A stretch of DNA of 64,000 bases from Vicinamibacteria bacterium (GCA_963832135.1 CAWHTD010000005.1:41730-105729), one strand, 5' to 3'. Counted from the stretch's first letter, positions 15,157 to 51,715 are shown. Made by a program: numbers and translations. Notes: generated by a model from the letters alone, not told the origin.

Positions 15157-15162
15157 GCGCGG

Positions 15163-21531: not shown

Positions 21532-21628
21532 ATGCTCGGTGTGCCCGCGCGAAGACGATCTGTCCAACCACATCCCTATCGTAATCTGCCGTCGCCGGTC
21601 AGGACCGACTGATGGTCCCTGCGCCGCG

Positions 21629-25369: not shown

Positions 25370-25385
25370 CCGTGAACGTTCACGG
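25370..25385. promoter_or_regulatory. candidate LacI-family operator, perfect palindrome CCGTGAACGTTCACGG (site 1)
   Basis: Exact 16-bp palindrome with a central CG. It lies 15 nt downstream of the -10 of the TBDR-1 promoter and about 330 bp upstream of the divergent LacI gene. Confidence 0.65.
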
Positions 25386-25400
25386 CTGGCAATGTCGCGG

Positions 25401-25429
25401 AAATTAGCGCCAAATTAAAGTATTGTCAA
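25401..25429 (-). promoter_or_regulatory. sigma70-type promoter TTGACA-N17-TAATTT for TBDR-1 and the downstream gene string
   Basis: On the minus strand, TTGACA is at 25429-25424 and TAATTT at 25406-25401. Same architecture as the TBDR-2 promoter at 45016-45044. Confidence 0.6.
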
Positions 25430-25713
25430 GCTTAATCTGTTTCAACTAGCTGGGCAGCACAACGGAGCCGCCTTCCGGACAAGCGCCATCGCGTCAGGTC
25501 TGACATCGGCCCATAGCAACCACGATGATGTCGGACCATCGACGCGATCCCGGCGCGACGCACGAGGTGCCGGCTGAGGTCCGCACCCACGGCCGGCGAC
25601 GATGAGTCAGGACCGCTTCCGATATTCGACGCGTACTTATCGTGGGGGTTCCCGCTAAAACGTCCTGCGCCAAGGCGCATGCGTAATGAGTAGGGACTAA
25701 GATATGGCGTCGC

Positions 25714-26916
25714 ATGCCGTCCGACGCCAAGACCCGGCCTCCGACGCCTCCGCCCGTGGGCATCAAGGACATCGCGCGTGCCCTCGGCATTTCCACGGGC
25801 ACCGTCGATCGCGCGCTGCACGGCAAGCCAGACGTCAGTCCCACGACGCGCGATCGCGTCCTCGACATGGCCGAGACGCTGGGGTATCGGCCGAACCTCG
25901 CGGCGCGCTACCTGCAATCACGAAAGCAGCTCCGCATCTCGGTCCAACTGCCCCGAAAGATCGCGCTCTTCTGGGACTCGCTGCGCGAAGGGATTCGCGA
26001 AGCCGCAGCGCCGTTTGCGCCGGCTCTGCACGTCGACTTCCGTACCTACCCGAGCCTGGGCGAGGGCGACATTCCCCTGTTCGAGGACGCGCTTCGAGAC
26101 GGCACGGACGGGCTGATCATCGCGCCGGGCAATCCCGTCAGGCTGGCCGCGCAGCTGCGCAAAGCGGCGCGTCGGCAGATCCCGGTGGTGTGTGTCGTCA
26201 CGGACGCGCCCGAGAGTCAGCGTCTGACGTCGGTCTCCGCCGACCCCTTCACCGTCGGCGCCGTCGCAGGCGAGCTCCTTGGGCGATTTCTGCCGGGCGG
26301 CGGGCAGGTCGCGTTCTTCACGGGATGGCTGGCCACGCAGGACCACGCCGACAAGCTCCGCGGATTCGAATGGAGCCTCCAGTCCACGGGCGCAGCGATC
26401 AAGCTCGGACCGATCGTCGAAGCCCACGACGATGAACGCGAGGGCCGTCGCCGGACGCTGAGTGTCCTCCGCGAGCACCCGAACCTGAAGGGGATCTACA
26501 TCAGCACGGTGAACTCATTGCCCGTCTTGCGCGCCGCCGAGCAAGAGGGACATCTCTCGAGGCTCACCGTTGTGACGACGGACCTCTTTCCGGAGCTGGT
26601 AGAGTGGATCCGCGCCGGGAAGGTCGCCGCGACGGTGTACCAGCGGCCGCTCAGTCAGGGACGTCTGGCGCTCCAGGCGCTCTACCAATTTCTTCTGAAC
26701 GGCACGCGGCCTCCGTCACGCCTGCGCGTGGTGCCGCATCTGGTCATGCGCAGCAATCTCGATCTGTTCCTCGAGCGCCTCCCCGTCGATCTCGACGCCG
26801 CCAGCCCCGGGCCCGGCGCCAACCGCACGACGGTGCGGCGCGCAGTGGCACGCGGCGTCGCCGCCCGCGCGACCGGTACGAAGCCACGACGGCGAGCGGC
26901 CGCCCGGCGCGCGTGA
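25714..26916 (+). CDS. LacI-family transcriptional regulator
   Basis: N-terminal HTH (GIKDIARALGISTGTVDRALHGKPDVSPTTRDRVLDMAETLGYRPNLAARYLQ) followed by a periplasmic-binding-protein-like sugar-binding fold. Arg/Ala-rich C-terminal tail. Confidence 0.9.
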   Translation: MPSDAKTRPPTPPPVGIKDIARALGISTGTVDRALHGKPDVSPTTRDRVLDMAETLGYRPNLAARYLQSRKQLRISVQLPRKIALFWDSLREGIREAAAPFAPALHVDFRTYPSLGEGDIPLFEDALRDGTDGLIIAPGNPVRLAAQLRKAARRQIPVVCVVTDAPESQRLTSVSADPFTVGAVAGELLGRFLPGGGQVAFFTGWLATQDHADKLRGFEWSLQSTGAAIKLGPIVEAHDDEREGRRRTLSVLREHPNLKGIYISTVNSLPVLRAAEQEGHLSRLTVVTTDLFPELVEWIRAGKVAATVYQRPLSQGRLALQALYQFLLNGTRPPSRLRVVPHLVMRSNLDLFLERLPVDLDAASPGPGANRTTVRRAVARGVAARATGTKPRRRAAARRA

Positions 26917-26943
26917 GGCCCGTCTGTCTCGAAGGAGAATGTC

Positions 26944-27810
26944 ATGTTCGGCATAGTCTGGATCACTCCTCTCGTGCGCAAGTTGCGCGTCGATGGCACC
27001 CTGCTCGCGCTCGTGTCTGCGCTTGCGATCGCCTCTGCGTGTTCCGACAAAGCGAATCAACCGGCTCCAGCGACGAGCCAGGCGCCTCCGCCCCCCGCCA
27101 GCCCGGCACCCGAGGCCGAGCCGCAGGCCCCGGCACCGGCCGATCAGCAGCCGCCCCCGGGTTCTGGCCCGGTCGACGCGCCGCACGATGAGGCTCCGCC
27201 TGCCGCTCGGCCGACGGCATCGCAACTCTCACCATCGGCGACCGCCGCGGCTCCACGCGCGGTCACCCCTGCTCCCCCGCGCTTCAGGGAAGTCACGCTG
27301 CCAGCGGGTACCGAGCTTGCCCTCCGCCTCGAAAGTCCGGTGGCGTCCGACACGAGCCACGTCGAAGATCCGGTTCGCGCGGTCGTTCGTCGCGCCGTTG
27401 TCCGCGGCGCAATGACCGTCCTTCCCGCGGGCACTCCGCTCACCGGACAGATTACCGCGGTCGAACGCGCGGGAAAGGTAAAAGGCCGTGCGCGAGTGGC
27501 GTTCCGCTTCGATGCGCTGACGGTGGACGACGAGCGCTATGACATCGCGACCAGCCGTGTGGCACGCGAGGCGCGGGGCACGAAGAAAAAAGATGCGACG
27601 AAGGTCGGGATTGGCGCCGGCGCTGGCGCGATCGTTGGCGGAATTCTCGGGGGCGGTAAGGGCGCTGCCATTGGCGCCGGCGTCGGGGCCGGCGCGGGCA
27701 CGGGTGTCGTGATGAGCACTCGCGGCGAAGAAGTGCGGCTCGCGACAGGCACGGCCGTGACGGTGACGCTCTCGAATCCGCTGACGATTCGCGTGCCGAT
27801 TGCACGATGA
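26944..27810 (+). CDS. lipoprotein with Pro-rich linker and C-terminal glycine-zipper segment
   Basis: GAAGGAGAA RBS, lipobox (LAIASAC), Pro/Ala-rich low-complexity region, and glycine zipper (GIGAGAGAIVGGILGGGKGAAIGAGVGAGAGTG). Confidence 0.6.
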   Translation: MFGIVWITPLVRKLRVDGTLLALVSALAIASACSDKANQPAPATSQAPPPPASPAPEAEPQAPAPADQQPPPGSGPVDAPHDEAPPAARPTASQLSPSATAAAPRAVTPAPPRFREVTLPAGTELALRLESPVASDTSHVEDPVRAVVRRAVVRGAMTVLPAGTPLTGQITAVERAGKVKGRARVAFRFDALTVDDERYDIATSRVAREARGTKKKDATKVGIGAGAGAIVGGILGGGKGAAIGAGVGAGAGTGVVMSTRGEEVRLATGTAVTVTLSNPLTIRVPIAR

Positions 27811-28233
27811 GCAGTCGGCCCGTCTGCGCCGGGCACTGCACACACGCCAGAGTTCGTCAGGCCTCATCAGACGCTCGCCGTTTTTGAGGAGCGCCTGAGC
27901 CGCCCGGGATCGAACTGCCACGTCCCGCAAACGAACAGCGCTCGCAGCCGCTGGAGGACGGCGTTGCGGCGTTCGCTGTGAAAATCGCACGGCTCCACCG
28001 GCTGGATCCTGGAACACGATTTGCGCCTGCCACAACGGATTTAGGCGCAGAGGCCCGCTTGTATTGGCGATACCTCGTATGTAGAGCGGACCTTCCGCCT
28101 TCGCTCGGGAAGCGTCGGCGGACCGCTGGAGCCTCGGCGGAGGCTGGCTTGGTCCGCCTCCGGGGCTGAAGCCGCGCGCTACATCAGACTCGGGCGCCCA
28201 ACACAATTACGCTCTGGGCCCAGGGAGGCTCTG

Positions 28234-29614: not shown

Positions 29615-29776
29615 GCGCGTCGATGGCCTGCCAGGCGCGCGACTGATCGCAAAGCTGCTGAGCGCTTTGGGCCGGGCGACATCTCGTGCTTGGTGGGCGG
29701 CCCACTTTCGTCCGGTGAGAGGACAGGATTGGAGACGCCAGATTCTTGATCATCGTGAATTGCCCGAAAGCGGTCA

Positions 29777-30624
29777 CTATCGAGACGCGATTGCTCGCCG
29801 GAGAAACTCGATGCCGTCAAACGCGATGGCATCCGGCGTCGGCTCGATGTCTCGCCAGATGGCGACCGCGGCACTGAACGCACCCAGCGAGGGACCGAAG
29901 CTCTCGATCGTCAACCAACCGTCGTATCGAAGGTCACGGAGCGCCTGAAACAGATGGGCCCACTCGACGTGACCGCTTCCTGGAGTACCCCGGTCGTTTT
30001 CCGAGATCTGCACGTGCTTCAAGTGCCGGCCGAGCCGCAGGCACGCACCCGCGATGTCTTTTTCCTCGATGTTTGCGTGAAAGGTGTCGAACGCCACGCC
30101 CACACGAGGATGCCCGACCTCGTCGCACAGGGCGGCGGCGTCGGCCGCGGTGTTGAGGAAGTACGTTTCGAAGCGATTGAGCGGCTCGATGGCCAGCGTG
30201 ACGCCACACGCATCGAGCGTCTCCGTGACTGATTGGTAGCCTTCGATGGCCCATTGCCATTCGTCTGGTGTGCGGCGCCGGCCAGGGAGATACCCAACGG
30301 GGCTGTAGAGCGGGCCGTCGATGACGCGAGCACCGACCTCCGCGGTGGCTTCTATCGCCTCTCGAAGGTGCTGGCGCGTGCGCCGCCGCACCTCGGCGTC
30401 GTCGCTGATCAGGCTTCGCCCCGTGGGAATGATGGAGCAGACCGTGCATTCGAGATCGTTTCGGCCGCGACGCCGTCGCGAATGTCCGCGGCCGGAAAGT
30501 CCGCGGGATCGAACATGGGCACTTCCACACCATCGAAGCCGTGCTCTTTGATTCGAGGCAGAAGAGCCAGCTGCGCGCGGCTGAACTCGGCCGACCAGAT
30601 GAACGTGTTCACCCCAAGCTTCAT
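29777..30624 (-). pseudogene. sugar phosphate isomerase/epimerase (xylose isomerase-like TIM barrel), one frameshift near 30470, or an indel error
   Basis: N-terminal piece (MKLGVNTFIWSAEF ... GFDGVEVPMFDP) in one frame. The rest (LAIEPLNRFETYFLNT ... FDTFHANIEE ... HVQISENDRGTPGSGHVEW) is in ORF 29777-30391. Confidence 0.75.
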
Positions 30625-30670
30625 GGTCAATGTTGTGCCCACAGTGGTGGAGGCGGGGTTTTGGCCCTCT

Positions 30671-30855
30671 TTAAACCCAGACTTCGCCGGGTAGATGACT
30701 CGAGATGTTGTTGCATTCGCCCGGCGGAGCCCGCCGAGACGGATCAAACGCAGAGCGCGCCGAGCCCGCAGAGTGCTTTTTGTCCTTTGCGATCTCAGCG
30801 TGCTCTGCGATGAGATCGGCTCTTCGTACCTGCCGCCTCCGCGCACTGCACCAGC
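30671..30855 (+). repeat. dispersed structured repeat, copy B
   Basis: Same blocks as copies A, C and D, with central hairpin CGATCTCA-N13-TGAGATCG. Lies between the Gfo/Idh/MocA stop and the isomerase start. Confidence 0.7.
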
Positions 30856-30895
30856 CCTTGCTCGGCCCTGCTTTAGCAAGCCGTTCAGTGCCGGA

Positions 30896-32027
30896 TCAAA
30901 ACCGAGGAATAGCGATCCTCTCGCCGCCCTTGAGCGCCGACTGGTGCGCGCATATACCGACCATCGTCCAGTTCGCGGACGTCTCGGCGTCAGGCATGGG
31001 CGGCTTGATGCCGAGGCACGCCATCAGAAAGCCGTTGACAAGGTGCGGATGCGAGCCGCCGTGTCCGCCGCCCTGCAGAAACGACAGGTGGTCGGCATCC
31101 TGGATGGCGGCCGGCTGCGTGAACGCGCGAATCGGCTCCGGCAAGCAAATGCGCATAGTCCGGCACCTTCACCCGCTTCGGAATGTCCGGTTCGCTCAGC
31201 GGTCGTTCGCGGGTGCTCTTCGTGTGGACCACCGGCTCTTCGTGTTCCACCTGCTGCCACTCGAAGGACTGCTTCGATCCGTATACATCGAAGCTCTCGC
31301 GGTATTGCCGCGCGGTATTGAACAGGCTCCGCGTGACTTCAGCGCAGACATCGGAGTCGCGCAGCTTGAACGTCGCCGTTTCAATGGCGAAAGGGCTGCC
31401 GTATTTCGGAATCAGCGTCTCGTCGATGCGACCGGACCCATGGCAGACGACGTGTTCGGCGTGCCTGCCTAAGAGCGCAAGGCATGGACTGACGCAGTGC
31501 GTGGCGTAGTGCATCGGTGGAAATCCTTCCCAATAGCCCGGCCAGCCCTCCATGTCCTGCTGATGACTCCCCCGCAGGAACTGGATCCGGCCCAGTTCGC
31601 CACGGTCGTAGAGCTCTTTGACGAACAGGTACTCGCGGCTGTACACGACGGTCTCCATCATCATGTACACCGTGCCGCTTCGTCGCTGTGCTTCGACAAT
31701 CTGCCGGCACTCGTCGATCGCGGTCGCGGCGGGCACCGTGCTGGCAACGTGTTTACCAGCATTCAGCGCCGCGATCGACTGCGGCGCGTGATCGGCTATC
31801 GGCGAATTGATGTGCACGGCATCGACATTCGGATCCGCCAGCAGTTGCGCGTAGTCGGTGTATCGCACCTTCACACCGAACCTGTCGCCGCAGGCATCGA
31901 GCTCCTTACGATCGCGGCGACAGATCGCGTACATCTCGGCGTTCGGGTGGCGCTGGTAGATTGGAATGAACTCGGCGCCGAATCCGAGCCCGACGATCGC
32001 GACTCTCACCTTCCCGTCCGTGGTCAT
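30896..32027 (-). pseudogene. Gfo/Idh/MocA family oxidoreductase, frameshift near 31150, or an indel error
   Basis: Rossmann N-terminus (VRVAIVGLGFGAEFIPIY). The C-terminal conserved piece (LPEPIRAFT ... GGGHGGSHPHLVNGF) is in the frame of ORF 30896-31156. Confidence 0.8.
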
Positions 32028-32059
32028 TGAGAGATCTCCTCGCCGCGAAATGGATACCT

Positions 32060-32267
32060 AAAAACCCAGGGTCCACTTGAGTATGAGTCGAATGGCATTC
32101 GGCTCGTGGAGACCGCAGAGAGACGGATCAACGGATCAAACGCAGAGCACGCCGAGCCCGCAGAGTGCTTTTAAGTACTTTGCGATCTCAGCGTGCTTCG
32201 GCGTTGAGATCGATTCCGCGTGCTCGGCCTCCTCTGCGTATGGCACCAGCGCTATCCATCGTCAAGT
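32060..32267 (+). repeat. dispersed structured repeat, copy C (best-preserved hairpin at 32183-32212)
   Basis: Same blocks as the other copies. Perfect 8-bp stem (CGATCTCA / TGAGATCG) around a loop containing CTTCGG. Internal duplication GGATCAACGGATCAAACG. Lies 3' of the MFS-2 gene. Confidence 0.7.
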
Positions 32268-32316
32268 CAAGCAAGTCTCGGTCTAGGGGCGCACTGCAGC
32301 ACCGTTGCACCGCCCT

Positions 32317-34050
32317 TTATGGACGAGCGACTCCGCCAGCTTCGGGCAGGAGACGCTCTGGCTTGTATCCGCCGGCTGCCCTGAAATACGCGATGAGCCC
32401 CAGATAGCAGACGAGCATGATGACCGGCAGCAGCGCAATCCTGCCCAGCGTCGCCTGCTTCGTGCGGCTGTCGAGCGCTGCCAGCAACGCGCTTTGTCGC
32501 GACAGCTCCTGGTAGTGCGGATCGGTCGAGAGCGCCTGCCGCGGCACGCCCTCCAACGATTCGCCAGCGATCTCCGGTGGCACGCTTTCCTGGATCCGCG
32601 CGGCCGACGCTGCCAACTCTTCAGCCAACAGGGCACGCTGCGCGGGATCGAGGCGCGAGACGATTCACCGAAAAGCCCCGGACGCGCCACGATGAGCCGC
32701 TCGGCGAGCGCCGGATCGGCGGCGCGGATCTCGGCGGTCAGCGCGATGTCCTGCACAGCGCCGATCGCGGGATTGCCGATCGTGCCCACCGAAATCATGC
32801 CGACGCCGGCGATGGCATTCAGCATCAGCGCCCCGCCACGCGGATACTGCTCGCTGACCACCCCGAGCGTCGTCGGCCAGAAGAACGTCTTGCCGAAGCC
32901 GTAGAAGGTGGCCGCGGCGAACAGCATCACGGGTGACGTGCCGGCCTTCGAGAGCCAGAGCAGGCCCATGGCGGCGACGGCTGCGCTGGCGGCGAGGAGT
33001 CCGAGCGGACCGATGCGGTGGACGATCGGTCCAGCGAAGAACCGAAGCACGAACATGATCAGAGACGTCCACACGAGGAACAACGTGCCCAGCGTCGGAC
33101 TCTGGAGGACCGTGTGCATGATGTCCGAAATCCAGCTGTCGGTGCCGAGCTCCGTCGTCGCGAGCAGCACCATGATCAGGAGCAGCAGGAAGAACATCGG
33201 TCGCCCGAAGCTCCTGACGTACAACGTGAACAGCAGCGCGAGCGGCCAGTGCGATCGCCAGCTGCGCGACGAGCGCGAATGTGGGCACACCGAGGATGAC
33301 GAGGATCTGGTTGAGACCCGCCACCAGGAAGAAGCACACGATGAAGCAGCTCCCTCCGCCGAACTCACGCAGCATGTCGTAATACGGCACATTGGCGGCC
33401 ACCCGCTCCTGCACGGGGAACGCTGCTTCAGGAGCATGAGACCATAGGCCAGCGTCGGCACGAGCACGAGCCCCACCTGCCATTGCCAGAGGCGGCCCGG
33501 CACACTCGCGGGATTCACGAAACTCACCGCAATGGCGACAAGCCCTCCGAGCACTAAGCCCGCCGGGCCATCCGGCGTGCAGCATGTTGAGGTACTTCGT
33601 CTTCTCGCGGTCGTACAGCGTGGCCGTCACCGGATTGACGACCGCCTCGACTGTCCCGTTTCCGAGCGCGAAGATGAACGTTCCGAGGTAGAGCAGCGCG
33701 AAGCCATTCCGTTGGCCCGCCAGGACCGCATCCGGGCCAGCGCCAGGATCTGCGAGGAGGAGCGGCGCCGCGAGGGTGATGACCGCCGAGAGCACATGGA
33801 GGGTGAACGCGATGGCCATCGAGACGCCGTTGCCAAGACGATCGATGATCAGGCTGAACAGGATGATCGAGATCGCGAACGGGAAGAGACCGGCACCCAG
33901 CAGGTATCCAATCTGCTCCTGACTGAGGTTGAACTCCGCGCGCCACTGGCCGAGGATCGCCGCGCGCACGGCAAAGCCGAATGACGTGGCCACGAGGGCC
34001 ACGACACAGCCCGTGAAGAGCCTGGTGCGGTGCATCGTCTCTGGCATCAC
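32317..34050 (-). pseudogene. MFS-type transporter (copy 2), at least 4 frame changes, or indel errors
   Basis: TM-rich segments alternate between the frames of ORFs 32665-34050 and 32283-33554. The last helix and tail (IALLPVIMLVCYLGLIAYFRAAGGYKPE) are in ORF 32317-32628, so the true stop is probably 32317. Confidence 0.7.
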
Positions 34051-34068
34051 TCTCGCCTTTGTCGAGGG

Positions 34069-37000
34069 TTATCGGCCGGGCGAGCCGCTTTCGGCTCGTC
34101 CGGTTCCTGGACCGGTCCGCGGCAGCACCACGCGCAGAACACCGTTCATCACACGCCAATGACCGGGGAACGTGCAGACGTATGGGTAGCGGCCGGGCTC
34201 GGCGGGCGCCCTGAAGTGCACGGTTATCGTTTGTCCGGGATCGACCAGCGTGGTGGAGAAGAGCACCTGTGGGATCGTCGGCACATACTGCTGCGCCATT
34301 CCGTTCGGTCCAGCCATGAGTGCATCCGCGGCCGACCCGATCTGGGCCAGCGATCCGGGCGTTCCGAGGAGGAAATTGTGCTGCATCACGTCCGGGTTCG
34401 CGAGCACAAGCTCCACCAGCTGGTTTGGCGCTACTGTCAATTCGCTTTTGTCGAACTTCAACTGATGCGGGATGACACCAAGCCTCACGATGACGTCTGG
34501 GGTCGACTCCGCCGCGCTCAGCTTCTTCTCTACCGCCGCTGGTGACGTCGCAAAGGCGAGATGAGCGGCCAGCTCTCCCGACTTCGTGTAGAGAGGGGCG
34601 GCGTTGGTCTGCCTTTCCACGCGATATCTCCACGTTCCAGCCAGCGGCACCGTGCGCTTGCCTCTCTGGACGGACATCGCCTCGGGCGGGCCCAGGAATC
34701 CGCCGTCGCCACGATTGTTCCGGATCCGGATGGTGATCGTGTTGGTCCCCGGACCGACGACGCCGGCGACGAGCGGGTAGAGCGGGGCGGAGGCCCGCCT
34801 CACGTGTGTGGCCGGTGGCGCGGCGAGCGGCTTTCCGTTGACCCACACCTCGGCGGCATTCCCGACGCGCCCGAGCGTCAGGCTCGTGGCCGGCGGTGCC
34901 GCTGGCCACTCGACACGGCGCGTGAACCAGACGACGCCATCGAAGTCGGGCAGACCTTGCGATTCCCAGTTGCCGGGCGCTTTCATCTCTTTCCAGTCCG
35001 AGGCCAATGAAGCGGCGTCGGGGCTGCGCCAGTCCGGCACGCTATTTCCGAGGCGGAGTGCGACGGGCAGTGCGTTCGACGGGAGCGCCTGGGCATCGGC
35101 ACGATATTCGCGTCAGAAAGCGGTCGCGATGCCGATACGCAGCGATGAACAATGCCCGGCTCAGCCACCTGTCACCGTAATTCGTTGCCTCAAGGCTCGC
35201 GGTATAGAGCGCCTTGCCGATCTCCGGAGACGCGGGCATGTCGGCCAGCGCCAGGACGCAGCCAGCCGTGTGTGCAGGTCGGGATCCTGCAGCAGACCGG
35301 CGCTCAGGATCGCGGCACCAGAGTCTGCGCCGCGAGGCAGCACCATCGCCGCGGCCTTCCGAACACCGGCAGCGGGATGTTTCAACGCCGCGACCGCCGT
35401 GCCAACGGCCTCACTCGTCGTGATTCGCCATCTCACCCAGCCCGTGCAAGGTCCAGAGCGCGTGCATCGCCGCGCCGTTGATCCCGACGGCGTCGACCGA
35501 CGTGTCGCGTGCAAGGACGACGAGCTGCGGCACGACGTCTCTGCTCGCCTCGTTCGACGAGCAGACGCTGGGCGTGGAGCCGCCAGAGCATGTTGTCCGA
35601 ACGCGAGCGCACGGACGCAGACCTGCCGGATCGGTCTTCGACAGCGACATCCGGGCAGCTCGCGGCGCGTCCTTGTAGACGACCCGATAAATGCGGCCTC
35701 GATGACGGTCGCGCATCGATGTCTCATAGGCATTGCCGGGGCCGTTGCTGTACCCGATCGGCGTGGGATTGTGCTGAGAGATGAAGTTGTACCAGTCGGA
35801 CACCCACACCGCGCCGTCGGGGCCGACCTGCGCCTGCACGGGCGCGACCCATTCCTCCGCGCCGGCCAGCAGGTTCCAGCCATCGCGCGTCGCGAACCCC
35901 GCGCCCTGTTTCTCGATGATGCCCTGTCCTACGAGATGAGCCGTCGGCTCCGAGATGAACGCAATGCGATTCCAATACGACTTCGGAAACGATCGCGCCG
36001 TGTAGAGGTGATGCCCGGCGGCCGCCGTGTAGCCGCCATGCACGTCTACCTGCCGGATGTACGGAGTCACGTAGTGCGCGGCATAGAACTGCGTCACGTT
36101 CTGATAGCCGGGACCGCTGCTGGCGCGCGCCCCCGCTGCCGAGGCCCTGAACGCCCTCAAAGTAGCGGTTGGGAATGGCCAGATAGAAACTCGGCTCGTT
36201 GTTCGCGGTCGACCCGAACACATCGAATGTCTCGGAGAAGCCCAATCCCCACGTGTTGTTGGTGGACGCGGTCAGAAACTCGAAATCAGAGCCGTCCGGC
36301 TTGAAACGGTACGCGCCCTGGGTGAACTGCATGCGCTTGCCGTTCATCTCGCCGTCGTACCCGGAATAGCCGACCACACCCCAGATCTGGTTGTCCGGCG
36401 CGTACTGGAGGTTCGAGGGCCCGGCGTGACTGTCTTGGATCCCCCAGCCCGTGCTCAAGACCTGGCGAACGTCCGCCTTGTCGTCGCCGTCGGTGTCCTT
36501 GAGAAACAGGATGTTCGGCGCGGCCGCGACGATGACGCCGCCATTGGAGAAGACCAGGCTCGAGGCGAGGTTCAACCGATCGGCGAACACCGTGACTTTG
36601 TCGGCGCGGCCATCGTCGTTCGTGTCTTCCAGGATCTTGATTCGGTCCTCGCCGGACTCGCCCCTCAGCACTCGGTTCGGATAGTCGATGGCCTCGATCA
36701 CCCAGAGCCGCCCGCGCTCGTCGAACGAGAAGGTAATGGGCTTGACGAGATCGGGCTCGCTCGCGAACAACTCCAGCCTGAACTCGGCAGGATGCTGGAT
36801 GAACTTCATCGAGTCTTGCGGATCGAACGGCATTTGATAAAGCGGAGCGGGGTCGCGGTTTTCGTAATTCGGCACGTTGAAGCCGTCGACGTAGTTCACG
36901 TCAGGCATCTTCAGCTGCTGCCACGCACGCCGCGCGGCGTCCTCGACCGCCCACGCCACGCCCTTCTCAATCAGCTTGTGGAACTCCGGCTGCCGCCACG

Positions 37001-37677
37001 TGCGCTCGTCGTGTCCGTATGCGGTGTAGAAGACGCGTCCCTGTCCCTGCGTGCGGACCCACGTGTACGGCTCACGTCCCTCCTCGTCGACGCGCTCCAT
37101 CAGGACCGTCCGGTTCACCGTGTTGTGCCGGGTGTGGACGTAGGTCTCATCCCATGTCTTGAACGGCTTCACGCCCTTGATCGCCGGGTGTTCCGCGTTG
37201 ACGATCTCCGCCGTGAACTCACCCGTGCCGTGCCGCAGGAACTGGCCGCCAATCAGCGGGATGTAATGTTCGGACTCCGTGAACATGAACGACGCGCAGT
37301 GGATCGCCACGACGCCTTTGCCACCCTCGACGAAATCGAGCAACGCCTTCTCCTGATCCGGCGTGATCGTCTTGTGGTTGGCGTAGATCATCAGGGCGTC
37401 GTAGTGCCTCAGCTTTTCTGGTGTGAGCGCTTCCTCCGGCGTCATCACATACGTCAGCTGAATGCCCCGCCGCGCAAGCGGCGCAGCCAGCAGTGGCAAC
37501 AGAGTGGAAGAGGGATGATGCTCCTGCAGCATGTCCCAGGAACAGCACCCGCAGCGGCCTGGGACCCGTCTCCGCCGGCGCCTGCATGGGGGCCGAAGAA
37601 AGACTCGCCACCAACAGGGCCACCGCTCCCCCCATCGGCAATGACACGTCACGACTCCAGGACATGGTTCGCCTCAT
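34069..37677 (-). pseudogene. giant secreted ThuA - membrane-bound-dehydrogenase-like propeller - HEAT - galactose-binding-like - cupredoxin protein, at least 6 frame changes, or indel errors
   Basis: Signal peptide and start of ThuA are in ORF 37219-37683. ThuA (GGKGVVAIHCAS ... VFYTAYGHDE) and the dehydrogenase domain (FASEPDLVKPITFSFDERGRLWV) are in 35724-37652. The continuation is in 35411-36223, and HEAT-like pieces are in 35161-35883 and 35042-35239. The C-terminal sugar-binding-like domain and blue-copper site (MQHNF ... YVCTFPGHWRVMNG) are in 34069-35040. Confidence 0.75.
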
Positions 37678-37721
37678 GGTCAACGTCGGCTTCTTGATCG
37701 TGACGCGGTCGCGGCCAGGTA

Positions 37722-37737
37722 CCGTGAACGTTCACGG
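37722..37737. promoter_or_regulatory. candidate LacI-family operator CCGTGAACGTTCACGG (site 2)
   Basis: Exact 16-mer overlapping the stop codon of MFS-1 (GCT CCG TGA) and sitting about 45 nt upstream of the ThuA-fusion start. Confidence 0.6.
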
Positions 37738-38994
37738 AGCGCAATCTACCACATCCGCCAGAAGCGGCACGGGTCGGATCGTCGGAATGGTGACGCAGAT
37801 GATCGCGAAGGCGATCACGTGGAACGATCCCGCCAGCGTGAAGACGACGCCGTAGCCGAAGCCGTGATCGAGCAGATATCCCACCAGCTGGCCGAAGACA
37901 ACACCACCCATCGCGCCGCCGAAGCCGACGAGTCCGGCCACGGCGCCGACGGCGTTGCGGGGATACATGTCGGCGGGCAGGGTCATCACGAGCGTGGACC
38001 ACGACTGCTGGCCGAAGTACGCCAGGCTGAAGATCGCCAGCGCCGATCCGACCGGGGCGCTTGGCACGAACACGACCGCAGGCATCACGACTGCGCTCAT
38101 GCCAAGCGCAATCTTGCGCGCACGGTCCAGGGGCACGTGCCGCGTCAGCAGCCAGCTCGAGAGCCACCCTCCAGCCAGGCAGCCGACGCCGGCGGCCGCG
38201 TACGGAATCCAGGCGAACGCGCCGACCGCCTTGATGTCGAAACCGCGGGCATCGTAGAGATACTTCGGGAGCCAGAACAGGTAGAAGTACCAGGCCGCGT
38301 CGCTCAAGAACTTCGCGAACACCAGTCCCCACGTCTGTCGCACGCGCAGGAGGTTCGACCACCGCGGTGTCGGCTCTTCCGCGCTCGCATGGATCACCGG
38401 TGCCAGCAACGCTCGCTCAGCGGGGCCGAGTCGGGGGTGCTCCGCCGGCACGAAGTATCCGCGCCACCACCAGATCGTCCAGACCACACCCACAAGTCCG
38501 GTCAGGTAGAACACCGTGCGCCAGTCGCCCCACGTCAACACGAGCGCGATGGCCGGAGGGGCCACGACCCCACCAACCGCGGTGCCCGCGTTGATGATGC
38601 CCATCGCCGTCGCGCGCTCGTGGACAGGGAACCACTCTGCGACGGCGCGCGTGGCGGCTGGAAAGCCACCGCCTTCGCCGATGCCGAGCAAGAGCCGGCT
38701 GACCGCGAGCATCGAGACGTTCGTGGCCAGGCCGTGGCTCGCGCAGGCAAGCGACCAGAACACCATGATCAGCAGAAAGCCCGCGCGGGTGCCGACCACA
38801 TCCATCAACTTGCCGCCGGCGGCGTACATGACGGCGTACGTGATCAGAAAGCTGGATTGCAGGAACGAGAACTGCTCGTTCGTCACGGGGATGTCTTGCT
38901 CGATCGCCTTGATCGCCACGGGCAGGGTCTGCCGATCGAGATAGCTGATCGCGATGGCCGCGCTGACCAGCACGGCTATGCGCCAGCGCAGCAT
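37732..38994 (-). CDS. MFS transporter, hexuronate/ACS-like (copy 1), intact
   Basis: The ATG at 38994 (MLRWRIAVLVSAAIAISYLDRQTL) is 9 nt after the GH127 stop. 12 TM-like segments. The longer ORF start at 39156 would overlap GH127. Confidence 0.8.
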   Translation of the reverse strand: MLRWRIAVLVSAAIAISYLDRQTLPVAIKAIEQDIPVTNEQFSFLQSSFLITYAVMYAAGGKLMDVVGTRAGFLLIMVFWSLACASHGLATNVSMLAVSRLLLGIGEGGGFPAATRAVAEWFPVHERATAMGIINAGTAVGGVVAPPAIALVLTWGDWRTVFYLTGLVGVVWTIWWWRGYFVPAEHPRLGPAERALLAPVIHASAEEPTPRWSNLLRVRQTWGLVFAKFLSDAAWYFYLFWLPKYLYDARGFDIKAVGAFAWIPYAAAGVGCLAGGWLSSWLLTRHVPLDRARKIALGMSAVVMPAVVFVPSAPVGSALAIFSLAYFGQQSWSTLVMTLPADMYPRNAVGAVAGLVGFGGAMGGVVFGQLVGYLLDHGFGYGVVFTLAGSFHVIAFAIICVTIPTIRPVPLLADVVDCAP

Positions 38995-39002
38995 TTCACC
39001 AC

Positions 39003-41510
39003 CTATCTCACCTTCCACTCCTGAATGCCCGCCGACCACTCCGGCTGCATGGTCAGCTCGAGCCTGAGCCCGCTCGTTGTGACCGGCGTAAAGGGCGCGC
39101 TGTTGTACCGACCCTTCTCCACGCCATAAGGCTCGCGCGCGTCGGCCGGCTTCCATGTGCCGCCGTCCTTATAGAGCACGCGCCACGACGCCGGCGCCCT
39201 CACGTCCCCGTGGTTCGTGTCGTCGAACCAATAGACCTCGACTTCGGAAACACGGGTTGGCTTCGCGAATGCGTACTCGACCCACTCCGTCGTCCCCTTG
39301 CGGGGCCACCAGTCGAAGTAGGACGACGGATCGTCGGAGGCTTGCGGCTCCTCGCCGTCGTTGATCGCTGTCGCGCTTCGACGCGACGGCGAGGCGGTGA
39401 TGGCGCTCGTCGTGACGGACGTAGTGACGGTGCTGCTCATTGCCACCGTTGGCCAAGGCGTCGGCCGCGCGGCGTCGTCGGATGCTGCCAGCCAGACGAT
39501 CATCTGACCACGTCCTCGGTTCGCCCAGGTCGCGTAGGGAATCGCCATGAACTCCTGTTCGGCCTTCACCACCTTGCCTTGCGCGTCATAGGAGAGACCG
39601 AACGCGCGGCCCTTGATCACCTGCACGCCGTTGAGCAGATCCCGCCGGAACTCGCTCGTCAGCGGTGCGTCGAGGGGCAGCACGAGATTTCTCACTTTTC
39701 CGTTCGGGCTGTCCGGCCATTCCGCCGCGTAGACGATTGGACCGCGCTGCAAGGCTGCCCGGCCGCGATCGGCCGCGACCATGTCGCTCGCGACGACGCG
39801 TCGTACCGGCATGGGCAGGACGAGCTCGACGACGTCGCCGGACTTCCATTCGCGCCGGACGTCGACGTACCCGCTCGTGTGGGCCGCGGGGACGGCGCTC
39901 CCGTTTACACGCACCGTGACCTCCTCACGATTGGTGTCCGCGAATCGATACAAGTCGCTCGGCACCGCCTCATCGCGAGCCCAGCCCGGAATCCGCAGCT
40001 TCAACGCAAACGGGCCTGGTGTATCGGGCTCGACAGTGATGCGCACCGTTCCGTCCCACGGGTATTGCGTGTCCTGGGTGAGCTTCACTGTTCGGCCGTT
40101 CCGCAGCGCAATGTCGGCGTTGCCCTTCGCGAAAAGATTCACGAAAATCGTGTCCCCTTGGAGCGCGTACACATAGCCAGGCACCGAGGCGAGAAAGCGC
40201 GTGATGTTGCCCGGGCAGCACGCGACACCGAACCACGGGCTGCGCTCGTGCTGCCCATTCGATTCGAGCGGGTTCGGATAGAAGAACGACTTGCCGTCGA
40301 GCGACACGCCGGAGATCAGCCCGTTGTACAGCGTGCGTTCCATGACGTCGATGTACTTGCCATCGGCGTGCAGCAGAAACAGGCGATGGTTCCAATAATC
40401 ATTTCCAATCGCCGCACAGGTCTCGTTGTAGGCCGTCATGTTCGGCAGCTCGTAGTCGCCTCCGAACGCCTCGCCTTGACCGGTCGCACCGATTCCGCCA
40501 GTCAGGTACAGCTTCTTGCCGACAACGCTCTGCCAGATGGCGTCGACCGCTTTGAGATACGAGGTGTCGCCTGTCAACGCCGCCACGTCCGCCATGCCGG
40601 AATACATGTACGTGGCACGTACGGCGTGCCCCACGGCGTCGGTCTGCTCGAAGACGCGTTCATGCGCCTGGTTGTAGTCGAGCCCTCGCGGGTTCGTCTT
40701 GGCACCGGGAGTGGGGCCACGTTCGTCGAGCAGAAATTTCGCCAGCGTCAGATACTGCTCGTTGCCCGTGACGCGGTACAGCTTGGCCAGGCCCATCTCT
40801 GTGATCTGGTGCCCGGGCCAGATCGATTTCTTGCCTGGGCCGAATGTCTCGACGAGGAGATCGGCGGTACGGATTGCGATGTCGAGCAGCGTGCGCTTGC
40901 CAGTGGCCTGATAATGCGCGACTGCCGCTTCATACAGGTGACCAAGGTCGTAGAGTTCGTGGCTGTCGTCGCGCTCGTGCTCCCACCGCGTCGTGCCTGC
41001 CCAGGGGTGCGGGTGCGCCGGATCGATCGTGCGTGCCGTGTAGAGATATCCGTCCTTCTCCTGTGCCGCCGCGATCTTTTGGATCAGCGAATCGACATAG
41101 GCGTCGAGCTTCGGGTCGGGGTGAACGCTCAGCGCGTACGACGCACCCTCAATCACCTTGTAGACGTCCGTGTCGTCGAACGGATAGCCGGGCGGCTGCT
41201 TGTTCTCGAACGGCTCGCCGCGGAGCGCCTTTGCGGCGCGGATGAAGTTGTCGACGCGGCCGCTCAACTCGCACTGCTTGAAGGCAAAGGGGATCGTCTC
41301 GACACGATTGGTCTCGATGCGCGGCGCCCAGAACGCATCGTCGAGGTGCACCGCGGTGAACGGTACCGGCTGAACCGGGTAATCGCTCTTGGAGGCGACG
41401 GGCGCGGCCGGCGATGCGCCCGATTGCGCGCGGACTGCCAAGGTGACGAGCGCCGTCGCGCCGAATCCGAGGACCAGGCCGACGGTCGCGGCCGTTCTTC
41501 TGAGAGGCAT
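39003..41510 (-). CDS. GH127 (DUF1680, beta-L-arabinofuranosidase-like) with C-terminal discoidin/F5-8 type C-like domain
   Basis: Signal peptide, then GH127-type N-terminal motifs (FWAPRIETNRVETIPFAFKQCELSGRVDNF ... HELYDLGHLYEAAVAHYQATG). The C-terminal roughly 130 aa resemble a carbohydrate-binding discoidin fold (WVEYAFAKPTRVSEVEVYWFDD). GAGGTG RBS. Confidence 0.85.
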   Translation of the reverse strand: MPLRRTAATVGLVLGFGATALVTLAVRAQSGASPAAPVASKSDYPVQPVPFTAVHLDDAFWAPRIETNRVETIPFAFKQCELSGRVDNFIRAAKALRGEPFENKQPPGYPFDDTDVYKVIEGASYALSVHPDPKLDAYVDSLIQKIAAAQEKDGYLYTARTIDPAHPHPWAGTTRWEHERDDSHELYDLGHLYEAAVAHYQATGKRTLLDIAIRTADLLVETFGPGKKSIWPGHQITEMGLAKLYRVTGNEQYLTLAKFLLDERGPTPGAKTNPRGLDYNQAHERVFEQTDAVGHAVRATYMYSGMADVAALTGDTSYLKAVDAIWQSVVGKKLYLTGGIGATGQGEAFGGDYELPNMTAYNETCAAIGNDYWNHRLFLLHADGKYIDVMERTLYNGLISGVSLDGKSFFYPNPLESNGQHERSPWFGVACCPGNITRFLASVPGYVYALQGDTIFVNLFAKGNADIALRNGRTVKLTQDTQYPWDGTVRITVEPDTPGPFALKLRIPGWARDEAVPSDLYRFADTNREEVTVRVNGSAVPAAHTSGYVDVRREWKSGDVVELVLPMPVRRVVASDMVAADRGRAALQRGPIVYAAEWPDSPNGKVRNLVLPLDAPLTSEFRRDLLNGVQVIKGRAFGLSYDAQGKVVKAEQEFMAIPYATWANRGRGQMIVWLAASDDAARPTPWPTVAMSSTVTTSVTTSAITASPSRRSATAINDGEEPQASDDPSSYFDWWPRKGTTEWVEYAFAKPTRVSEVEVYWFDDTNHGDVRAPASWRVLYKDGGTWKPADAREPYGVEKGRYNSAPFTPVTTSGLRLELTMQPEWSAGIQEWKVR

Positions 41511-41659
41511 AACACCTCGCCGTATCGCGCCGGTGGGCGCGGCACCAGAGGACGATGTTCCCGGAGCCCGCTCATCCGTACGGGACGGTGGAAGGGCTCG
41601 TGTCGCAAAGCCCGCCTCGCGGGCGGACAGAGGCGTCCGCAGGGCGCCGATCAGTATAA

Positions 41660-41675
41660 TCGTGAACGTTCACGG
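41660..41675. promoter_or_regulatory. candidate LacI-family operator TCGTGAACGTTCACGG (site 3, 15/16; inner 14 bp perfect), overlapping a TATAAT box
   Basis: Lies in the divergent spacer between GH127 (minus) and the TPR-ASPIC pair (plus). TATAAT at 41655-41660 on the plus strand abuts the palindrome. Confidence 0.6.
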
Positions 41676-41736
41676 TGCACGTCGGACGGGAAATGGGCCT
41701 GACCTGCGGCGAAAGGCCCTGTTCTGGTGGGTCCCA

Positions 41737-43206
41737 ATGATTCAGTGGAGACGCGCGGGGCTCGCATGTGCTGTCCTGGCATCGCTCGGCATGGCGGTCC
41801 CCAACCGCCAGAAAGACCACGTCGACGCGATCACGTCCGCACTGCGCGCGCGAGATTTCGACGGTGCCGCAGCGCGGAGCCGTTCGGCTTTGCGGGACCA
41901 CCCGAACGACGCCCAACTATGGACGTTGCAAGGCATTGCGCTCGCGAGCAAGGGCAACAATGATGAGGCGCTGAAGGCTTTCGAGCGAGCGCTGCAACTC
42001 GCACCCGCCTACGTCGCGGCGCTCGAGGGCGCCGCTCAACTCTATTACCAGGCTGGAAGTCGGCGAGCCGTGCCGCTCCTCACCCGCTTATTGCGGTTGC
42101 GTCCGGCCGATCCGACCAGCCATGCGATGCTGGCGGTGCTGGAATTCCGGGAGGGGAATTGTCGGACTGCCGTCGGGCACTTCGAACAGGCGGGTCCGGT
42201 CATCGACTCGCAGCTCGATGCTCTTCATGCCCACGCGACCTGCCTCGTCAGGTTGAAGCAGCTCGACGGAGCAACGCGCGTCTTTCAGCGCGCAGTCGCT
42301 CTCAATCCAGACGATCCGCGCGAGCGCCGGCTGCTGGCGGCCATTCAACTGATGGCCGGCAAGCCTAATGACGCGGTTGCGACGCTGACGCCCGTTCTCG
42401 AGCGGACTCGCCCGGACGCCGAGACCCTGGGCCTGGCGTCGGCAGCCTACGAGGAGGCGGGCGACACGCCACGCGCGGTTGACGCGCTCCGTCAGGCGAT
42501 TCTGCTGGACCCGAAGAACATCAATCTGTACCTGGACTTCGCCAACATCGCCTTTGCGCACCAGTCGTTCCAGGCCGGCATCGACGTGATCAACGACGGG
42601 ATCGGTCTGCAGCCCGGTGCAGCGCCGCTGTACCTGGCGCGCGGCGTTCTGTACGTCCAACTGGCCAATTACGACAAGGCCGAGGCTGATTTCGAAAAGG
42701 CGAACGAGCTCGATCCCCGTCAGGCGCTGAGCGCGGCCGCGCAGGGATTGGCCGCGGCGCAGTCGAACGATCTCGATCGCGCGCTGTCGACAATTGGCGC
42801 GAAGCTGGCGCGCAAGCCGAACGACGCGTTTCTGCTCTATCTTCAGGCGGACATTCTCGCGCAAAAGGGCCCCGAACCAGGCACACCCGAGTTCCAGAAG
42901 GCATTGGCGTCGGCGAAAAAGGCGGTGTCGCTACAGCCAACACTCGCCACCGCCCGCGCGGTGCTGGCGAAGCTGCACTTGCAAGCAGGGCAGTACGAGG
43001 ACGCGATCGAACAATGCAGGAAGGCACTCGCCAGCGATCCGAAGGACCAGACCGCCTTGTACCGCCTGATACAGGCTCTAAGAAAGTCCGGCAACAAGGC
43101 GGAGATTCCTGATCTGCTCAAACGCCTGGCATCGCTTCGCGAGCAGGCGACGCAGGAAGAGAGGGACCGTTACCGCTACAAGCTGGTCGTGGGAGACGCA
43201 CCGTGA
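41737..43206 (+). CDS. TPR repeat protein (secreted)
   Basis: The ATG at 41737 (MIQWRRAGLACAVLASLGMAV) is in frame with ORF 41389-43206. TPR units run throughout. Confidence 0.8.
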   Translation: MIQWRRAGLACAVLASLGMAVPNRQKDHVDAITSALRARDFDGAAARSRSALRDHPNDAQLWTLQGIALASKGNNDEALKAFERALQLAPAYVAALEGAAQLYYQAGSRRAVPLLTRLLRLRPADPTSHAMLAVLEFREGNCRTAVGHFEQAGPVIDSQLDALHAHATCLVRLKQLDGATRVFQRAVALNPDDPRERRLLAAIQLMAGKPNDAVATLTPVLERTRPDAETLGLASAAYEEAGDTPRAVDALRQAILLDPKNINLYLDFANIAFAHQSFQAGIDVINDGIGLQPGAAPLYLARGVLYVQLANYDKAEADFEKANELDPRQALSAAAQGLAAAQSNDLDRALSTIGAKLARKPNDAFLLYLQADILAQKGPEPGTPEFQKALASAKKAVSLQPTLATARAVLAKLHLQAGQYEDAIEQCRKALASDPKDQTALYRLIQALRKSGNKAEIPDLLKRLASLREQATQEERDRYRYKLVVGDAP

Positions 43207-44960
43207 CGCGCCGCACGTTTGTGCGATTGTCTCTTTCCTCTGTGATGGCCGCGAGAGTGCACGAGGTTCTCGCGCAGGGCGTCTCGACTCACTCGGCGAA
43301 GCCGCTGGCGAGGCCAGCTCCGTCGGGCCGCCCGTTCAACGCCCACTTTGTGGATGTGGCGTCTGAGGCTGGGCTGCGAGCACCCGTCGTATATGGAGGA
43401 GTAGACAGCAAGAAGTACATCGTCGAAACGATCGGATGCGGGTGCGCGTTCTTCGACTACGACAACGACGGCTGGATGGACATCTTCCTCTTGAGCGGCA
43501 CGCGATTGGAAGGACATCCCGACGGCACCACCAACCGGCTCTATAAGAACAATCGTGATGGCACATTCAGCGATGTCACCGCGCGATCAGGGCTGGAGGC
43601 CGTCGGGTGGGCGTCCGGAGTCTGCGTGGGCGACTACAACAACGACGGCTTCGAGGACCTTTTCTGCACGGCGTTCGACCAGAACCGGCTCTATCGCAAC
43701 AATGGCGACGGAACGTTTACGGATGTGACGCGGTCCGCCGGACTGTGGAACCCGCAGCCTCGATGGGGTGCGGGGGCCAGTTTCGTCGACTACGACCGCG
43801 ACGGGCACTTGGACTTGTTCGTCTCCAACTACATACGTTTCTCCTTCGAACATGCCCCGGTTCCAGGAGAGAACACCAACTGCAACTGGAAAGGGATCCC
43901 CGTTGTGTGTGGGCCACGCGGGCTTCCGCCGGGGAGACATTCGCTCTACCGGAACAACGGGGATGGAACGTTCACCGACGTCAGCGAGCACGCGGGCATT
44001 TCAGCGGCAACCGCGAGTTACGGAATGACCGTGGTGGCCGCGGACCTCGATGAAGATGGATGGCCGGATATCTACGTCGCGTGCGACTCGACTCCCAGTC
44101 TCCTGTTCATGAACAACCACGACGGCACCTTTCGCGAAGAAGGCGTGCTCCGGGGCGTCGCGCTCAGTGACGACGGCGCTGAACAGGCCGGTATGGGAGT
44201 GGGCATAGGCGATTACGACTCGGATGGGCACCTCGATCTCCTCAAAACCCACTTTGCCGACGACGCGAACGGTCTGTACCACAACGACGGTACGGGGAAC
44301 TTCGACGACGTGACACGTGCGACGCGCGTCGCAGTGGAGACCCGCTACGTCGGCTGGGGTGCCGGGATTGTCGATCTCGATAACGACGGTTACCCGGATC
44401 TGTTCGTGGTGACCGGCAACGTCTATCCAGAAGTGGAGCGGAAGTTGCCGCAATATGCCAACAAGACGCCGCGTGCCGTGTTCCGTAATCTCGGCGACCG
44501 CAACTTCGAGGAGCTGGTCGAGGAGGCGGGGCCAGGCGTTGCGGAGGCACACTGCAGCCGCGGATGTGCCTTTGGCGACTTTGATAATGACGGCGATGTC
44601 GACGTGCTGATCGTCAACCTGAACGAGCCTCCATCACTGTTGCGCAATGACCTCACGGGGACACAGAACTGGATCAAAGTGAAGCTCGAAGGCGTGAAGT
44701 CGAATCGCAGCGCCATTGGGGCACGAGTCCTCGTCCATTGCGGCCAAAGGATCCAGGCACAGGCGGTCGTGAGTCAGTCGAGCTTCTACTCGTGTAACGA
44801 CCCACGGCTCCACTTCGGGATGGGCGGCTGCGGTTTTGCCGATGTCGAGGTGTACTGGCCCAATGGTCTGCACGAGACCCTCAAACGTCTTCCCGCCAAC
44901 CAGCTGATTACGCTGCGAGAAGGCGCGGGCGTGGTGCCAAATCGGGGCTGGACGAAGTAA
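43203..44960 (+). CDS. ASPIC/UnbV FG-GAP repeat protein 4
   Basis: The GTG start overlaps the TPR stop (GTGA). Signal peptide, FG-GAP repeats, and C-terminal UnbV motif (NRSAIGARVLVHCGQRIQAQAV ... SSFYSCNDPRLHFGMG). Confidence 0.85.
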   Translation: MTRRTFVRLSLSSVMAARVHEVLAQGVSTHSAKPLARPAPSGRPFNAHFVDVASEAGLRAPVVYGGVDSKKYIVETIGCGCAFFDYDNDGWMDIFLLSGTRLEGHPDGTTNRLYKNNRDGTFSDVTARSGLEAVGWASGVCVGDYNNDGFEDLFCTAFDQNRLYRNNGDGTFTDVTRSAGLWNPQPRWGAGASFVDYDRDGHLDLFVSNYIRFSFEHAPVPGENTNCNWKGIPVVCGPRGLPPGRHSLYRNNGDGTFTDVSEHAGISAATASYGMTVVAADLDEDGWPDIYVACDSTPSLLFMNNHDGTFREEGVLRGVALSDDGAEQAGMGVGIGDYDSDGHLDLLKTHFADDANGLYHNDGTGNFDDVTRATRVAVETRYVGWGAGIVDLDNDGYPDLFVVTGNVYPEVERKLPQYANKTPRAVFRNLGDRNFEELVEEAGPGVAEAHCSRGCAFGDFDNDGDVDVLIVNLNEPPSLLRNDLTGTQNWIKVKLEGVKSNRSAIGARVLVHCGQRIQAQAVVSQSSFYSCNDPRLHFGMGGCGFADVEVYWPNGLHETLKRLPANQLITLREGAGVVPNRGWTK

Positions 44961-45015
44961 GCGGCGACCCTGGGCTTACACGCCTAGACCCTATACGCAG
45001 AGCTAACCATATCGC

Positions 45016-45044
45016 TTGACAACGCCAAGTCCTGGCGCTATTTT
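45016..45044 (+). promoter_or_regulatory. sigma70-type promoter TTGACA-N17-TATTTT for TBDR-2
   Basis: TTGACA at 45016-45021 and TATTTT at 45039-45044. The operator follows after exactly 15 nt, as at the TBDR-1 promoter. Confidence 0.6.
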
Positions 45045-45059
45045 CGCCCACGCTTGGCG

Positions 45060-45075
45060 CCGTGAACGTTCACGG
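45060..45075. promoter_or_regulatory. candidate LacI-family operator CCGTGAACGTTCACGG (site 4)
   Basis: Exact 16-mer between the -10 box and the TBDR-2 start codon. Confidence 0.65.
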
Positions 45076-51690: not shown

Positions 51691-51715
51691 CGGGACGGTC
51701 CCCCGGCGGTCGGAG

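Follow-up and report, generated by a model that had tools for sequence, protein, structure and literature searches.

The analysed window, a 64,000-nucleotide stretch of DNA from a Vicinamibacteria bacterium (GCA_963832135.1, CAWHTD010000005.1:41730-105729), carries a gene for a LacI-family regulator of 400 aa (25714..26916, plus strand) and several copies of a 16-nt palindrome, CCGTGAACGTTCACGG, placed among genes for TonB-dependent receptors (TBDR), glycoside hydrolases and sugar transporters. Motif search located exact copies at 25370-25385 (site 1), 37722-37737 (site 2) and 45060-45075 (site 4), as well as a copy with one mismatch, TCGTGAACGTTCACGG, at 41660-41675 (site 3; 15/16). These are the four copies listed in the original prediction, which had been made from the sequence alone. 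It had also placed no copy within a coding body; this holds for the four listed sites and fails for a fifth copy, GCGTGTACGTTCACGG, which has two mismatches (14/16) and lies at 63686-63701 inside the bactofilin gene (63487-63894). Since it is situated in coding sequence, the fifth copy is probably a chance match without function, though it fits the relaxed motif of the wider clade described below.

The regulator is built from a LacI helix-turn-helix (HTH) domain (residues 17-61; Pfam PF00356, 45.7 bits against a cutoff of 27), a hinge, a Peripla_BP_4 sugar-binding core (PF13407, 151.6 bits) and an Arg-rich C-terminal tail. The hinge sequence PNLAARYL is intact and is conserved in all homologs. 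Sequence matches in the PDB include CcpA (1rzr, residues 15-280) and PurR (residues 17-348), and the similarity is full-length. No second LacI gene was found in the window: tblastn with E values up to 10 returned only 25714-26916 itself and Pfam agrees, which bears out the earlier statement that this is the single member of the family there. Homologs of the protein number in the thousands, many of them 73-93% identical and derived from soil metagenomes. The basic, Arg-rich tail extends about 40 aa past the periplasmic-binding-protein (PBP) core (26790-26916, residues ~360-400) and is shared by the Vicinamibacteria orthologs with a variable sequence; alignments to most, not all, distant homologs end before it. 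The recognition helix S[TI]GTVDRALH is near-invariant among the fetched homologs, in part an effect of the locus search, whose pattern was GTVDRALH. Among the same homologs the T-to-I changes in this helix do not track the operator variant, and no specificity rule was derived.

The palindrome, read as CCGTGAAC followed by GTTCACGG, is perfect, of even length, with a central CG, a half-site GTGAAC and a core ACGT. Its recurrence was compared with 100 dinucleotide-preserving shuffles of the window, in which matches with up to three mismatches were counted. The shuffles gave a mean of 0.53 matches against five observed, and none of the 100 reached five, in agreement with the earlier judgement that chance recurrence is negligible; the relaxed core GTNNACGTNNAC likewise occurs five times in the window versus 0.82 ± 0.92 in the shuffles. 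According to a repeat search, similarity among the copies ends 1-9 nt past the palindrome, giving a shared stretch of 17-25 nt. The original prediction had named a larger mobile repeat as a finding that would speak against it; such a repeat, of the repetitive extragenic palindrome (REP) or miniature inverted-repeat transposable element (MITE) kind, was rejected because the shared similarity is limited to these 17-25 nt and the flanks are unrelated. An intrinsic terminator or hairpin was rejected as well, as no terminator-like call or T-run overlaps any site, and an Rfam scan of the whole window gave no family at the gathering threshold.

Sites 1 and 4 are associated with the promoters of the two receptor genes. 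Site 1 lies in the divergent spacer between TBDR1 and the LacI gene; from there it is 126 nt to the likely start codon of TBDR1 (ATG at 25243, preceded by GGAGG). The predicted TBDR1 promoter (25401..25429, minus strand) consists of the -35 box TTGACA (25424-25429), a 17-nt spacer and the -10 box TAATTT (25401-25406), and the operator begins 15 nt downstream. Site 4 follows the TBDR2 promoter, TTGACA-17-TATTTT (45016..45044, plus strand), which was identified by promoter scan with 10 of 12 matches; here too the operator begins 15 nt past the -10 box, and the TBDR2 ATG (45179) follows at a distance of 103 nt. The claim that two sites stand 15 nt past TBDR -10 boxes was thus recovered by the scan for site 4, and for site 1 it is visible in the sequence with a -10 box below the scan threshold. 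Taken over all loci, the TBDR promoters comprise TTGACA, a 16-18-nt spacer and TAnnnT, with the operator 3-16 nt downstream; the elements TTGACA and GGCGCTAnTTT are kept across the orthologous TBDR promoters, 3-16 nt upstream of the operator. A further hexamer, AGATTA, is conserved 2-5 nt upstream of TTGACA in TBDR1-type promoters (window ~25433-25438, minus strand; L001, L003, L004, L008, L021 and L074, the L numbers denoting related loci); the TBDR2 promoter lacks it. This hexamer might act as an UP-like element or be bound by a second regulator.

Site 2 is positioned between the genes for the transporter MFS-1 and a ThuA-DUF7133 protein. As had been predicted, it overlaps the MFS-1 stop codon immediately before the ThuA-fusion gene: it takes in the stop and the two preceding codons of the MFS-1 open reading frame (ORF), and the ThuA-DUF7133 start is 69 nt downstream. 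An extended -10-like box, TGGTAGATT, missed by the simple promoter scan, lies 5 nt upstream of the site (37743..37751, minus strand). L074 has the identical box, there 6 nt ahead of the site, and in the metagenome contig L119 a related box, TGGTAGGCT, is found 3 nt downstream of the site. With a conserved extended -10 box of its own, site 2 would mark an internal promoter for ThuA-DUF7133.

Site 3 occupies the 226-nt divergent spacer between the GH127 gene and a TPR gene, 149 nt from the GH127 start and 61 nt from the TPR start. A TATAAT reading toward the TPR gene (41655-41660, plus strand) is present next to it, as originally proposed, but the box that is conserved points the other way: TATACT (41653..41658, minus strand), which stands 1 nt past the site when read toward GH127. 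A -10 box in this direction follows the operator by 0-1 nt in each of the four loci with this arrangement (TATACT in the window; TATAAT, TATAAT and TATGAT in L017, L023 and L026, respectively), and L026 has no acceptable -10 box in the direction opposite to GH127. Conservation of the box in these four loci makes GH127 a better-supported target of site 3 than the TPR-ASPIC pair. In L023 (13523-13613) the GH127 ATG is located 5 nt after the operator-abutting TATAAT, suggesting that the GH127 mRNA of this genome has no leader. With site-to-start distances of 126, 69, 149 (or 61) and 103 nt, the four sites lie in upstream regions, as is usual for operators of the LacI/GalR family, which seldom fall within coding sequence. 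Every site adjoins a -10 or -35 box that is conserved. Judged by the predicted promoters, all of these are positions from which a repressor would act.

The conservation of the sites was analysed by phylogenetic footprinting. A scan of a genome collection for LacI homologs gave 80 loci, with LacI identities of 71-86% in metagenome-assembled genomes (MAGs) of Vicinamibacteria and 47-62% in Terriglobia, Bryobacterales, Acidobacteriaceae and Pyrinomonas. By these identities the window belongs to a soil MAG of Vicinamibacteria (Acidobacteriota), apparently one assembled from long reads. Thirteen distinct Vicinamibacteria loci have the TBDR and LacI genes in divergent order, and every one of them retains the palindrome (exact in 10, with 1-2 mismatches in three) between flanks that diverge. 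An alignment of three orthologous TBDR-LacI spacers shows the 16-mer, TTGACA and GGCGCTA to be invariant and the remainder to diverge. Retention at orthologous promoters, which the original prediction had proposed to examine, is therefore seen beside the LacI orthologs. The TBDR-LacI site also occurs in the metagenome contigs L111, L129 and L161. The other sites recur in equivalent positions: upstream of GH127 in L017, L023 and L026, and between GH127-like and DUF5695 genes in the metagenome contig L136; between MFS-1 and ThuA-DUF7133 in L074 (CCGTAAACGTTCACGG, read in the ThuA direction) and in L119 (exact); and in the ASPIC-site-TBDR order of site 4 in L048 and L050. Additionally, a site lies upstream of GH39 in L006 and upstream of a TBDR in L130. 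None of 29 matches with up to two mismatches, found in 82 loci (~1.4 Mb), falls inside a tblastn-defined gene. A crude ORF caller, which over-extends starts and labels several upstream sites as coding, so that the tblastn-defined gene bodies are preferred, still placed 23 of 34 copies (these 29 and the five of the window) in the 13.5% non-coding fraction (p = 6e-13).

Beyond the close relatives, the core is retained next to LacI homologs of 47-62% identity in the form GT[CGT][AT]ACGT[AT][ACG]AC, in the variant GTNNACGTNNAC, most often upstream of a TBDR gene. Over homologs of 47-86% identity, GTNNACGTNNAC is found near the LacI gene, at 35-315 nt on its upstream or 35-215 nt on its downstream side, and it stands upstream of 42 of the 63 TBDR N-termini in these loci versus a background of 0.09 per kb. 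The Terriglobia and Bryobacterales variant, CCGTGTACGTTGACA, overlaps the TTGACA -35 box, the half-site GTTGAC coinciding with the TBDR -35 in L028, L036, L038, L039, L043, L044, L046, L047, L055 and other loci of these groups. The location of the half-site on the -35 box in the distant loci implies that the operator position has shifted between classes and that the TBDR target has been kept.

The genes under the four sites are summarised as follows, with operon boundaries inferred from common strand and short gaps. The unit under site 1 (9687..25243, minus strand) successively contains TBDR1 with CarboxypepD_reg and OMP_b-brl_4 domains (~21632-25243), two TPR genes (19984-21114 and 16973-19987), three ASPIC/FG-GAP genes (15163-17061, 13448-14878 and 11700-13526), an unknown ORF (11134-11700) and a GH51-like gene (9687-11079); the domains were assigned by Pfam and the TBDR1 frames by tblastn. 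The order from TBDR1 to the GH51-like gene is the same in L001-L004, L008, L011 and L074. A sigma-54 activator gene (7240-9417) lies remote from the sites. The unit under site 2 (29777..37652, minus strand; Pfam), which has the same order in L074, encodes ThuA-DUF7133 (35724-37652), a cupredoxin-domain protein (34069-35040), the transporter MFS-2 in two frames (32283-34050), Gfo/Idh/MocA (30990-32027) and a xylose-isomerase-like TIM barrel (29777-30391 and beyond), all on the minus strand. On the same strand, and also by Pfam, the GH127 beta-L-arabinofuranosidase (39003-41510) is followed by MFS-1 (37732 to ~39156, start uncertain). On the plus strand Pfam identified a TPR gene (41737-43206), an ASPIC/FG-GAP gene (43203-44960) and TBDR2 (45179..48457), a TonB-dependent receptor with CarboxypepD_reg and OMP_b-brl_4 domains. 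Upstream of GH39/GH51 (49972-53362) there is no further site at up to two mismatches in the 12-nt core.

The predicted regulon of the window accordingly comprises TBDR1-TPR-TPR-ASPICx3-GH51-like, GH127-MFS1, ThuA-DUF7133-cupredoxin-MFS2-Gfo-isomerase and TBDR2. Of the membership proposed originally, both receptors, GH127, MFS-1 and the ThuA/Gfo/isomerase block are supported by the footprinting, and the TPR-ASPIC pair (41737..44960), a possible target of site 3 in the plus direction, is uncertain. The span of 20 kb given at that time needs to be extended to about 39 kb, because the unit under site 1 reaches ~9687, left of the coordinates first assigned.

Several genes of these units are split over two or three frames: TBDR1 (21632-25243), MFS-2 (32283-34050), the isomerase (29777-30879) and the GH51-like gene (9687-11079), with similar cases in L002 and L074; TBDR1 aligns to an intact ortholog across all three minus-strand frames. 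The occurrence of frame splits in related MFD long-read MAG loci makes indel errors of the assembly more likely than pseudogenes. The window also contains a dispersed intergenic repeat of ~100-160 nt in four copies of the same orientation (30710-30870, 32131-32253, 9476-9558 and 61822-61922), the others being 79-88% identical to the first and two of them flanking the Gfo/Idh/MocA gene. No Rfam family matches this repeat, and of the fetched related loci only L007 contains any of it, a fragment of 26 nt. An IS630-like insertion sequence toward the right end of the window is represented by a DDE_3 transposase gene (60109-61161) that also encodes HTH domains.

Taken together, the four palindromes are very probably operators of the adjacent LacI repressor (25714-26916), a prediction in which the binding by this product, the repression and the operon boundaries are inferred. 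A LacI dimer would occupy each 16-bp site with one HTH per GTGAAC half-site and its hinge helices over the central CG step. Because each site stands at a promoter, the bound repressor would block the binding of RNA polymerase or its escape from the promoter, by occlusion or as a roadblock. Sites 1 and 4, which start 15 nt past the -10 box, would cover roughly +9 to +24; site 2 would act from 5 nt past the extended -10 box, and site 3 from the spacer, immediately upstream of the GH127 -10 box. A sugar effector bound at the Peripla_BP_4 domain would then free the repressor from DNA. Judged by the regulon content of GH127, GH51-like and, in relatives, GH39 enzymes, L-arabinose or an arabino-oligosaccharide would probably serve as the effector.

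Several observations weigh against this assignment. The motif census covers the 64-kb window and the related loci. A search of sequencing runs matched soil and sediment DNA metagenomes only, which share at most 19% of words with the window. The -10 box of site 1, TAATTT, agrees with TATAAT at three of six positions and falls under the threshold of the promoter scan, which uses E. coli criteria, the promoter rules of Acidobacteriota not being established. Seven close LacI orthologs (L007, L009, L012, L013, L015, L022 and L030) have no site in their fetched flanks. In these seven, the LacI gene follows a TPR/ASPIC/GH51-like block, with a divergent GH39 in between in L007, L013 and L030; a TBDR cluster head lying beyond the 10-kb flank explains, and does not prove, the absence. 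Finally, unselected metagenome contigs contain the exact 16-mer in 80 readable loci, of which about 19 directly flank a LacI-family gene, and not all of these genes are of the present type. In high-GC contigs (0.68-0.76, probably actinobacterial; L085, L088, L092, L094, L105, L107, L113, L117, L127, L133 and L144) this 16-mer stands unchanged beside LacI genes whose recognition helix is VSRQTVTRALN and which adjoin Gfo/Idh/MocA, GH2-like or MFS genes. From their sequences, these contigs look like an unrelated LacI regulon with the same operator. As different LacI types flank the same 16-mer, the palindrome would be a generic operator sequence of the LacI class, and sequence alone does not identify the paralog that binds it.

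This last point speaks for the most probable alternative, in which the palindrome is bound by another regulator, either a LacI paralog from a different part of the genome or a protein that is not of the LacI family. The operator does not uniquely specify its protein, and the count of LacI genes covers the window only. Nevertheless, the motif tracks the gene position of this LacI clade across 47-86% identity, the site is found in every one of the 13 TBDR-LacI divergent spacers, and within the window there is neither another LacI gene nor another regulator gene adjoining the sites, the sigma-54 activator gene being distant. Binding by a different protein is therefore considered unlikely. A still smaller probability is given to the case in which the LacI protein binds but activates, or has a dual role, at some sites. 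CcpA and Cra are LacI-family members that activate when bound upstream of promoters, and the promoter assignments made here are consensus-based only; on the other hand, the four sites overlap a -10 box, lie just downstream of one or sit in the spacer, none is upstream of a -35 box, and next to the distant homologs the site coincides in part with the -35 TTGACA, all of them classic positions for a repressor. The weakest alternative, a non-regulatory repeat (REP/MITE fragment, RNA hairpin or terminator) or chance recurrence, could appeal to the 6-bp hairpin that a perfect palindrome may form and to the genuine dispersed repeat elsewhere in the window, but it is highly improbable given the lack of similarity past ~17-25 nt, of any T-run or terminator call, the conservation of the site at orthologous promoters between unrelated flanks and the shuffles, which exclude chance.

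A broader proposal can be put forward tentatively, and we regard it as less likely to be right than wrong: that Acidobacteriota possess, throughout the phylum, a module made up of this LacI clade and the ACGT-core operator GTNNACGTNNAC, gating TBDR-TPR-ASPIC/FG-GAP clusters with GH127, GH51 and GH39 arabinofuranosidases. Were this true, the abundant TBDR-TPR-ASPIC clusters would correspond, in Acidobacteriota, to polysaccharide-utilisation loci that serve plant glycans rich in arabinofuranosides, such as arabinan, arabinogalactan proteins and extensins. Arabinofuranoside utilisation would then provide a functional context for the expanded TBDR, TPR and FG-GAP/ASPIC families, and the first one for bacterial CRTAC1/ASPIC-like proteins. 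Vicinamibacteria and other Acidobacteriota belong to the most abundant bacteria of soil, yet, to our knowledge, hardly any have been cultured and almost no transcriptional regulation has been characterised in them. The prediction of an operator together with its repressor and targets offers a testable handle on the glycans they consume, and the motif may be used for regulon annotation in thousands of acidobacterial MAGs.

A literature search on the motif sequence returned one unrelated paper; searches on Acidobacteria with LacI, TBDR and arabinofuranosidase, and on ASPIC with TonB-dependent and FG-GAP proteins, found nothing, and for ASPIC/UnbV only a paralog-family listing for Solibacter was obtained. 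The motif and the regulon are without earlier description in the searchable literature, while the mechanism is that of a textbook LacI system. What is mildly new is that arabinofuranosidases and acidobacterial TBDR-TPR-ASPIC clusters would be tied together by their regulation.

In a survey of the LacI family (Ravcheev et al. 2014, PMC4052901), 1251 of 1303 motifs are palindromic with an even length of 16-22 nt, 1173 carry CG at the centre, and more than 75% of the sites are found 30-140 nt ahead of the start codon; Acidobacteria receive no mention in it. The original prediction that an even palindrome with a central CG has the LacI/GalR operator form agrees with this rule, and at the level of sequence every testable feature of the family is present here. 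As in the LacI/GalR sugar regulons (PMC4052901), with PurR, CcpA and LacI as archetypes, the protein combines HTH, hinge and PBP-like core, the 16-bp operator is even with a central CG, the sites are located 61-149 nt upstream of starts, and the regulator gene adjoins its predicted targets, which are glycoside hydrolases and sugar transporters. There are, however, differences from the surveyed systems. These relate to the half-site GTGAAC with the ACGT core, to the Arg-rich tail of ~40 aa, and to the main conserved targets, which are TBDR promoters and TPR/ASPIC genes instead of ABC or PTS transporters.

Two further kinds of system invite comparison. AraR of Corynebacterium glutamicum and other LacI-family regulators of arabinose or arabinan use are repressors with palindromic operators at arabinose-related genes. 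The present system would share with AraR the LacI-family repressor, the palindromic operator and the control of arabinose-related genes; the phylum, the operator sequence and the gene set differ. With the polysaccharide-utilisation loci of Bacteroidota, the present locus would share the co-regulation of TBDR with glycoside hydrolases (GH127, GH51-like and, in relatives, GH39) by a local sugar sensor. In contrast to those loci with their SusC-like TBDR, the receptors are of the acidobacterial CarboxypepD_reg/OMP_b-brl_4 type and have no SusD partner, the predicted regulator is a cytoplasmic LacI repressor in place of a hybrid two-component system, SusR or an extracytoplasmic function (ECF)/anti-sigma pair, and the receptors are accompanied by TPR and FG-GAP/ASPIC proteins of unknown function.

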